From the sequence record PP355090.1: a DNA stretch of 64,000 bases; one strand, 5' to 3'. Made by a program: the position numbers and the translations under genes. Below are positions 5,535 through 6,362 of the stretch, in pieces; the stretch's first letter is position 1; every line of letters starts with the position of its first letter. The stretch comes from Escherichia phage 232Ecol030PP. The notes under the pieces were generated by a model that had not been told where the DNA came from, ran no database searches, and saw only the letters and a program-made list of their open reading frames with translations.

Positions 5535-5610
5535 TGGTCGAGGCAGTAGGGATCGAACCTACGACCCAGGACTTAGAAGGTCCTTGCTCTTCCTTCTGAG
5601 CTATGCCTCG
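5535..5610 (-). tRNA. tRNA-Arg (anticodon UCU)
   Basis: manual cloverleaf: acceptor CGAGGCA/TGCCTCG, anticodon loop CTTCTAA, T-loop TTCGATC, CCA encoded. Confidence 0.85.
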
Positions 5611-5614
5611 GATT

Positions 5615-5689
5615 TGGCGGACGTGATAGGATTCGAACCTATAACCAATCGCTTAACAGGCGATCGCTCTGCCATTGAGCTACACATCC
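5615..5689 (-). tRNA. tRNA-Asn (anticodon GUU)
   Basis: manual cloverleaf: acceptor GGATGTG/CACGTCC, anticodon stem ATCGC/GCGAT, loop CTGTTAA, T-arm ATAGG-TTCGAAT-CCTAT, CCA encoded. Confidence 0.75.
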
Positions 5690-5693
5690 AAAT

Positions 5694-5780
5694 TGGTGGG
5701 GAGTGATGGAGTCGAACCACCCGAGTCGCAATGACAATGGATTTACAGTCCACACCGCTACCTCTACGGGATAACTCCCC
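5694..5780 (-). tRNA. tRNA-Tyr (anticodon GUA), long variable arm
   Basis: acceptor GGGGAGT/ACTCCCC, anticodon loop CTGTAAA, long variable arm TGTCATTGCGACTCGGG, T-loop TTCGACT; architecture like bacterial tRNA-Tyr. Confidence 0.7.
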
Positions 5781-5789
5781 AAATTAATT

Positions 5790-5864
5790 TGGTGGCCCTG
5801 GGTGGAATTGAACCACCATCTGGCGATTATGAGTCGCTTGCTTGAACCTTCCAGCTACAGGGCC
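5790..5864 (-). tRNA. tRNA with CAU anticodon (Ile by analogy with T4, or Met)
   Basis: acceptor GGCCCTG/CAGGGCC, anticodon loop CTCATAA, T-arm GGTGG-TTCAATT-CCACC. Confidence 0.75.
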
Positions 5865-5865
5865 T

Positions 5866-5941
5866 TGGTGCTGATTGACGGAATCGAACCGCCGACCTTC
5901 TCATTACAAGTGAGTTGCTCTACCTACTGAGCTAAATCAGC
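5866..5941 (-). tRNA. tRNA-Thr (anticodon UGU)
   Basis: acceptor GCTGATT/AATCAGC, anticodon loop CTTGTAA, T-loop TTCGATT. Confidence 0.85.
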
Positions 5942-5946
5942 AAAAC

Positions 5947-6036
5947 TGGCGGAGGCGATAGGATTTGAACCTATGAGTCGCCGGAGCGACTGCCGGTTTT
6001 CAAGACCGGTGCATTAAACCACTCTGCCACGCCTCC
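5947..6036 (-). tRNA. tRNA-Ser (anticodon UGA), long variable arm
   Basis: GGAGGCG...CTTGAAA...long variable arm...ATAGG-TTCAAAT-CCTAT-CGCCTCC-G-CCA. Confidence 0.85.
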
Positions 6037-6039
6037 AGT

Positions 6040-6112
6040 CTCCGTGGCAGGATTTGAACCTACGACATTCTGCTCCCAAAGCAGACGCTCTACCAAACTG
6101 AGCTACACGGAG
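6040..6112 (-). tRNA. tRNA-Pro (anticodon UGG), CCA not encoded
   Basis: acceptor CTCCGTG/CACGGAG, anticodon loop TTTGGGA, T-loop TTCAAAT; 3' end followed by CT then tRNA-Ser. Confidence 0.85.
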
Positions 6113-6122
6113 TAAATTAAAT

Positions 6123-6196
6123 TGGAGCGGATAATGAGAATCGAACTCACATCATCAGATTGGAAGTCTGAGGTAATACCATTATACGATATCCGC
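6123..6196 (-). tRNA. tRNA-Gly (anticodon UCC)
   Basis: acceptor GCGGATA/TATCCGC, anticodon loop CTTCCAA, T-loop TTCGATT. Confidence 0.85.
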
Positions 6197-6201
6197 AAAT
6201 T

Positions 6202-6288
6202 TGGTGCGAGAAGTGGGACTCGAACCCACAAGGAAATCATTCCGCAGCATTTTAAGTGCTGTGCCTTTACCAATTTGGCCATTCTCGC
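6202..6288 (-). tRNA. tRNA-Leu (anticodon UAA), long variable arm
   Basis: acceptor GCGAGAA/TTCTCGC, anticodon loop CTTAAAA, T-loop TTCGAGT. Confidence 0.85.
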
Positions 6289-6289
6289 G

Positions 6290-6362
6290 CTGGGAATAAA
6301 GGACTCGAACCTTTGCATCCTGGAATCAAAATCCAGTGCCTTACCAACTTGGCTAATTCCCA
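6290..6362 (-). tRNA. tRNA-Gln (anticodon UUG), CCA not encoded
   Basis: acceptor TGGGAAT/ATTCCCA, anticodon loop TTTTGAT, T-loop TTCGAGT. Confidence 0.85.

Follow-up and report, generated by a model that had tools for sequence, protein, structure and literature searches.

The sequence analysed here is a 64,000-nucleotide (nt) stretch of DNA from Escherichia phage 232Ecol030PP (PP355090.1), referred to below in its whole length as the window, and the element in question is an array of transfer RNA (tRNA) genes. A search of the entire 64-kb window with ARAGORN identified ten tRNA genes, all on the minus strand and all within positions 5535–6362; no tRNA gene was found by ARAGORN outside this interval. 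In the order of transcription, with ARAGORN ends and with scores against the Rfam tRNA family RF00005, the genes are:

6289–6362, minus strand: tRNA-Gln (UUG), 67.4 bits; only C74 of the CCA end encoded; abuts tRNA-Leu
6202–6288, minus strand: tRNA-Leu (UAA), class II, 64 bits; CCA encoded
6123–6196, minus strand: tRNA-Gly (UCC), 65.8 bits; CCA encoded
6038–6112, minus strand: tRNA-Pro (UGG), 69.7 bits; CCA not encoded
5947–6036, minus strand: tRNA-Ser (UGA), class II, 62.6 bits; CCA encoded
5866–5941, minus strand: tRNA-Thr (UGU), 72.9 bits; CCA encoded
5790–5864, minus strand: tRNA with anticodon CAU, labelled Met by ARAGORN and better labelled Ile2 type, 59.9 bits; T2/RB14 allele
5694–5780, minus strand: tRNA-Tyr (GUA), class II, 30.2 bits; 4-nt connector between acceptor and D stems
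5615–5689, minus strand: tRNA-Asn (GUU), 74.1 bits
5535–5610, minus strand: tRNA-Arg (UCU), 65.8 bits; T2/RB14 allele

The ten tRNA genes are real. All of them lie above the RF00005 gathering score of 29 bits, nine at 59.9–74.1 bits (E 1e-10 to 1e-14) and tRNA-Tyr at 30.2 bits, and no family besides tRNA reached its threshold in an Rfam scan of the window. Ten adjacent minus-strand tRNA genes with these identities had been proposed from manual folding in an initial annotation of the sequence, and both ARAGORN and RF00005 bear this out. The spacers are 0–10 nt long by the ARAGORN ends, close to the 1–11 nt proposed there. Direct reading of the 3' ends showed that CCA is encoded in eight of the ten genes and that, as had been claimed, only Gln (...CCCAG-C) and Pro (...GGAGA-C) lack it. 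The Asn and Tyr intervals, 5615–5689 and 5694–5780, score as tRNAs with ARAGORN and RF00005, and in the annotation of phage fFiEco06, where the Asn gene is identical and the Tyr gene differs by 2 nt, tRNAscan-SE 2.0 scores of 81.8 and 51.2, respectively, are given.

The CAU tRNA had been called Ile(CAU) in the initial annotation, and this label appears better than Met because of its likeness to E. coli tRNA-Ile (CAT) and its acceptor pairs. The gene's best match in 5423 of 5426 E. coli genomes carries a tRNA-Ile annotation and the anticodon CAT, and the anticodon arm, GCGACTCATAATCGC, is identical in the two. The acceptor, GGCCCUG/CAGGGCC, gives the pairs C4-G69 and C5-G68, which are determinants for E. 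coli TilS. Presumably, the CAU anticodon is converted to lysidine and reads AUA.

Gene orders at this locus in the window and in related phages are as follows, rnaD and rnaC being the genes for the species 2 and species 1 stable RNAs and segB the gene for the endonuclease SegB:

Window and RB14: the ten tRNAs above, no open reading frame (ORF), rnaD, rnaC; 10 tRNAs
T2: Gln-Leu-Gly-Pro-Ser, ORF, CAU-Tyr-Asn-Arg, ORF; 9 tRNAs
T4: Gln-Leu-Gly-Pro-Ser-Thr-Ile, segB, Arg, rnaD, rnaC; 8 tRNAs
T6: Gln-Leu-Gly-Thr-CAU-Tyr, segB, Arg; 7 tRNAs

The annotation of RB14 (FJ839692 / NC_012638) contains the identical ten tRNAs, unchanged in order and strand, between e.8 and tRNA.2–tRNA.4. RB14 is 97.8% identical to the window over 1.6 kb, with the same flanks (the rnaC/rnaD side and tRNA.2–4); its Ser, Thr, CAU, Asn and Arg genes are 100% identical, while Pro differs at 12 of 75 positions and Tyr, Gln, Leu and Gly differ by 1 nt each. 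T2/T2L (AP018813; AJ880101), like the window, lack segB, and the CAU, Asn and Arg genes of T2 are 100% identical to those of the window, with a single difference in Tyr. T2 departs from the window in its spacers and in the absence of Thr; an ORF (trna.1) separates its Ser gene from the CAU tRNA, and a further ORF follows Arg, at the place taken by rnaD in the window.

The Gln, Leu, Gly, Pro, Ser and Thr genes of T4 (NC_000866) are homologous and nearly identical to those of the window, the anticodons of eight tRNAs are the same, and rnaD, rnaC, the terminator and the flanking genes are conserved. In contrast, T4 carries segB (666 bp) in place of Tyr and Asn, and its Ser and Ile genes lack an encoded CCA. 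Its Ile and Arg alleles are divergent (~65% identity to the window); in the alignment, homology is lost ~12 nt into the Ile gene and regained at the very end of Arg. The proposal that the first seven tRNAs and Arg match the T4 set therefore holds for the anticodons but not for the CAU and Arg sequences, which are ~65% identical to the T4/T6 alleles, whereas Tyr and Asn are indeed additional to that set, both being absent from T4. T6 (AP018814) shares tRNA-Tyr (85/87 identical) and the spacer that precedes it, but has segB in place of Asn, lacks Pro and Ser, and carries T4-type CAU and Arg alleles (50/77 and 50/76 identical to those of the window). Its homology to the window runs through Tyr and the 3' spacer and ends exactly at the start of Asn, where the segB cassette begins.

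Many Tequatrovirus genomes, among them fFiEco06, the PYps Yersinia phages and the CHD/PM-series coliphages, match the 1.6-kb region at 99.7% identity. At least 80% of the whole region is covered by 489 phage records, and at least 80% of the Tyr-Asn segment by ~435; full-length segB is present in 126 phage records, roughly one third to one quarter of the number carrying Tyr-Asn. The array is the common, uninvaded, majority segB-free allele of the T4-like (Tequatrovirus) tRNA operon. We hold its identification as an ordinary operon of this kind with high confidence, and there is no evidence that contradicts it. The array is already known: it is annotated in GenBank (RB14), the corresponding region of T2L, RB1 and RB3 was described in 2008, and the function of tRNA-Tyr was studied in 2026.

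Sequencing of the tRNA regions of T2L, RB1 and RB3 revealed no segB and, in each, genes for tRNA-Met(CAU), Tyr, Asn and Arg (Brok-Volchanskaya et al. 2008, PMC2330249). The homing endonuclease SegB, of the GIY-YIG type, prefers a site of 27 bp that is wholly contained in tRNA-Asn; its core reads GGTTCRANTCC and cleavage occurs just 3' of CCAR, and the presence of CCAG shifts the cut position at a secondary site in tRNA-Ser (PMC2330249). When T4 and T2L co-infect, segB is inherited at nearly 100%, and ~1250 bp of T2L, containing Met, Tyr, Asn and Arg, are lost (PMC2330249). In the window, the interval between Ile and Arg is occupied by Tyr and Asn, and a tblastn search of the 64 kb with T4 SegB (E<=10) gave no match. 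The tRNA-Asn of the window, 100% identical to the T2 and RB14 copies, is predicted to carry the preferred SegB cleavage site:

5614–5639, minus strand: core of the preferred SegB site in the 3' part of tRNA-Asn, from GGTTCGAATCC at 5639–5629 through CCAA at 5617–5614, predicted from identity to T2 tRNA-Asn; the text of PMC2330249 does not give the exact boundaries of the 27-bp site

The ten tRNAs, arranged head to tail with rnaD, rnaC and a terminator, would be transcribed as one or a few precursors, from which RNase P and 3' processing enzymes of the host would release them, as analogy with T4 suggests for this phage. The host CCA-adding enzyme would complete Gln and Pro. Eight of the tRNAs would read A-ending codons, which are rare in E. 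coli and common in the AT-rich phage. Tyr and Asn would be the sole decoders of their codon boxes, giving extra supply for amino acids used ~1.5 times more than in the host, and at least Tyr would also replace host tRNA destroyed by a tRNA-cleaving defence (Septu/PtuAB).

Codon frequencies were taken from the ORFs of the window and set against E. coli values of the standard Kazusa table. On this basis, the classical codons CAA, UUA, GGA, CCA, UCA, ACA, AUA and AGA occur at 1.6–5.5 times their E. coli frequency. Tyr codons stand at 41.9 per thousand against 28.4 and Asn codons at 58.6 against 39.4, each ~1.5-fold, with UAU enriched 2.0-fold and AAU 2.4-fold; in the structural-gene block Asn codons reach 63.2 per thousand, 1.6 times the E. 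coli value. Such figures are what would be expected if Tyr and Asn served translational supply only, in keeping with AT-rich codon and amino-acid usage, with no part in counter-defence. However, Lys codons are also enriched 1.6-fold and no phage tRNA-Lys is carried, so that the codon data, although compatible with a supply role, do not discriminate. The Tyr and Asn tRNAs each read both codons of their box and cannot shift codon preference, and T4 grows well without either. Codon supply for Tyr and Asn is plausible, and to that extent the codon-usage tuning proposed in the initial annotation stands (Tyr and Asn codons at ~1.5 times E. coli), but the Lys figures deprive it of discriminating force. 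That supply is the whole explanation is possible but doubtful, also in view of the experiments with Septu.

The target of Septu (PtuAB) is host tRNA-Tyr, which it cleaves in the variable loop (Chihara et al. 2026, PMC13096335). T2 is resistant to this defence, whereas T4, with no tRNA-Tyr, is sensitive; deletion of the T6 tRNA region leads to higher sensitivity, and tRNA-Tyr alone rescues (PMC13096335). Rescue of infection by T6 tRNA-Tyr is seen when the gene is over-expressed or amplified by SegB-dependent tandem repeats (PMC13096335). The tRNA-Tyr of the window is 85/87 identical to this rescuing T6 tRNA, and a counter-defence role for T-even tRNA-Tyr, to which the gene in the window would belong by its sequence, is supported by the published Septu work.

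A comparable case for tRNA-Asn draws on the PARIS defence. Among the secondary targets of AriB, the PARIS nuclease, is host tRNA-Asn(GUU), which is cut between positions 40 and 41; AriB substrates share a UAAU motif at 36–39 (PMC12409363). The phage tRNA-Asn reads U36-A-A-G39-C40-G41 where the host tRNA reads U36-A-A-U39-C40-C41, so the UAAU motif is absent from the phage copy. By analogy the phage tRNA-Asn might escape AriB cleavage, and it is from this analogy that we infer any role of Asn beyond decoding. Tyr and Asn may even be kept mainly as spares against tRNA-cleaving defences, Tyr against Septu and retron-Eco7 and Asn against PARIS AriB; the Asn-or-segB polymorphism would then be a trade-off, with an anti-defence gene on one side and, on the other, the selfish endonuclease that attacks it. 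This proposal is speculative, and we consider it unlikely as the main reason for their retention.

As to the origin of the array, tRNA-Asn holds the SegB site, and in T4 and T6 segB and a different Arg allele occupy the place of Asn; from this we infer that the eight-tRNA set of T4, which would also have lost Tyr, is the invaded, derived state, and that the ten-tRNA array did not arise as an intermediate from T4. The initial annotation had suggested the opposite course, in which Tyr and Asn were acquired later by a T4-like set, as an evolutionary intermediate or an expansion of the T-even cluster. Two observations are in line with such a course: T4 lacks both genes, and the lineage of the Tyr gene appears to spread horizontally, with copies at 94–95% identity in rV5-like phages and on ~270 E. 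coli plasmids, so that gain by transfer is possible in principle. Against it, Tyr+Asn arrays outnumber segB arrays by ~3.5 to 1 among database phages, segB replaces exactly the gene that contains its preferred target, the T4 Ile and Arg genes are foreign alleles that travel with segB, and crosses convert the Tyr-Asn allele to the segB allele (PMC2330249). Later acquisition is therefore very improbable, and the notion of an intermediate is not supported, the ten-tRNA array being the common segB-free allele (RB14; T2 for Ile-Tyr-Asn-Arg; ~435–490 phage records). T4 is instead the atypical member of its own genus at the tRNA locus, because the arrival of segB would have cost it two tRNA genes and given it foreign Ile and Arg alleles; departures from T4 should thus not be taken for novelty.

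Some parts of this account stand less firmly than the identification. The direction of change, segB invasion as opposed to gain of Tyr and Asn, rests on parsimony and homing experiments. The host side of the codon comparison rests on tabulated values. A scan for sigma-70 promoters upstream of Gln gave 3 consensus matches where 3.7 are expected by chance. Septu also cuts T6 tRNA-Tyr, and rescue by this tRNA depends on its over-expression or amplification (PMC13096335); the protection from a single-copy Tyr gene may therefore be no more than partial.

The low Rfam score of tRNA-Tyr, 30.2 bits against a gathering score of 29, would also fit a decayed, tRNA-like remnant, as would its minimum-free-energy fold, which is not a cloverleaf and is no better than that of shuffled sequence (z -0.9), and its D stem, which in the canonical register is only 59% paired. 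An alignment was made of eight homologues, from T6, an E. coli plasmid, and rV5-like, Cronobacter, FelixO1-like, T5-like and Klebsiella phages. When the D stem (CCGU/GCGG) is displaced by 2 nt, and is thus preceded by a connector of 4 nt (U8 A9 N N) as opposed to the usual 2, all 24 pairs of the cloverleaf form in all eight of these diverse homologues (192 of 192 cells paired), with compensatory changes at 14 of the 24 pairs, a result reached by none of 500 shuffles. The 2-nt variant in fFiEco06 has the tRNAscan-SE 2.0 score of 51.2 given above, and T6 tRNA-Tyr (85/87) is seen on northern blots and rescues infection (PMC13096335). The idea of a decayed gene, or pseudo-tRNA, is largely refuted by the covariation and the published T6 data and is scarcely credible. 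On the pattern of substitutions, tRNA-Tyr appears to be a genuine, constrained tRNA of slightly atypical shape, whose 4-nt connector accounts for the low detector scores.

The 4-nt connector is conserved in the T-even, rV5-like, FelixO1-like, T5-like and Klebsiella phage homologues and is absent from E. coli tyrT. A weak match of the gene to tRNA-Sec (34.4 bits against a gathering score of 47) had added to the suspicion of a pseudo-tRNA. Recent capture of Tyr and Asn from the host was also rejected: the genes are identical to their E. coli counterparts at only 60 of 87 and 47 of 76 positions, respectively, and in blastn searches phage Tyr had no chromosomal E. coli match at E<=0.01 and phage Asn only weak partial matches. 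The rV5-like phages that carry the 94–95% identical Tyr lineage are unrelated, and the ~270 E. coli plasmids are of ~110 kb; in one of them, pEC881_2, which looks like a phage-plasmid, Tyr is part of an Asn-Tyr-Thr-Ser cluster with a DNA ligase and an integrase nearby. This distribution suggests horizontal spread of the phage-type tRNA-Tyr.

Downstream of the array, on the same strand, lie the stable RNA genes and a terminator-like hairpin:

5414–5533, minus strand: rnaD (species 2 stable RNA) homologue, directly 3' of tRNA-Arg; 103 of 121 alignment columns identical to T4 rnaD (NC_000866)
5269–5407, minus strand: rnaC (species 1 stable RNA) homologue; 137/139 identical to T4 rnaC
5195–5218, minus strand: strong intrinsic-terminator-like hairpin of 10 bp (7 G-C) followed by a T run; closes the tRNA/stable-RNA unit and is conserved in T4 and RB14

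The Tyr-Asn interval 5615–5780 had also been considered as a possible counterpart of the T4 species 2 RNA; this was rejected, both rnaD and rnaC mapping downstream of Arg. In fFiEco06, the closest relative, the rnaC/rnaD DNA is annotated as two small 'hypothetical protein' coding sequences (FE6_135 and FE6_136), which are probably mis-annotations over non-coding RNA genes. By the RB14 and fFiEco06 annotations, the array is placed between the e.8/rnaC-rnaD side and the trna.2–trna.4/ip genes, on the same strand. A Pfam scan of the neighbouring ORFs at 4671–5144, 6460–6747 and 6750–7148 gave nothing above threshold. The first of these (minus strand) encodes 157 amino acids and is flanked by e.8 and rnaC; T4 has no annotated ORF here, and the RB14 ORF at the corresponding place is annotated as similar to RB69 ORF148c/149c. 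This ORF is a variable insert beside the RNA operon.

Differences between alleles are also found within the array. In tRNA-Pro (6038–6112), the acceptor, anticodon and T stems stay paired despite the 12 of 75 positions that differ from the RB14/T4 allele, as in the paired change UCUGC/GCAGA versus CCUGA/UCAGG, a pattern that indicates mosaicism within the array. The anticodon stem of tRNA-Gln shows several paired substitutions between the window/RB14 allele and the T4/T6 allele (65/74 identical to T6) and marks another allele boundary inside the cluster. The CCA end of tRNA-Ser is encoded in the window, RB14 and T2, whereas the T4 copy lacks it (...CCG-TAA).

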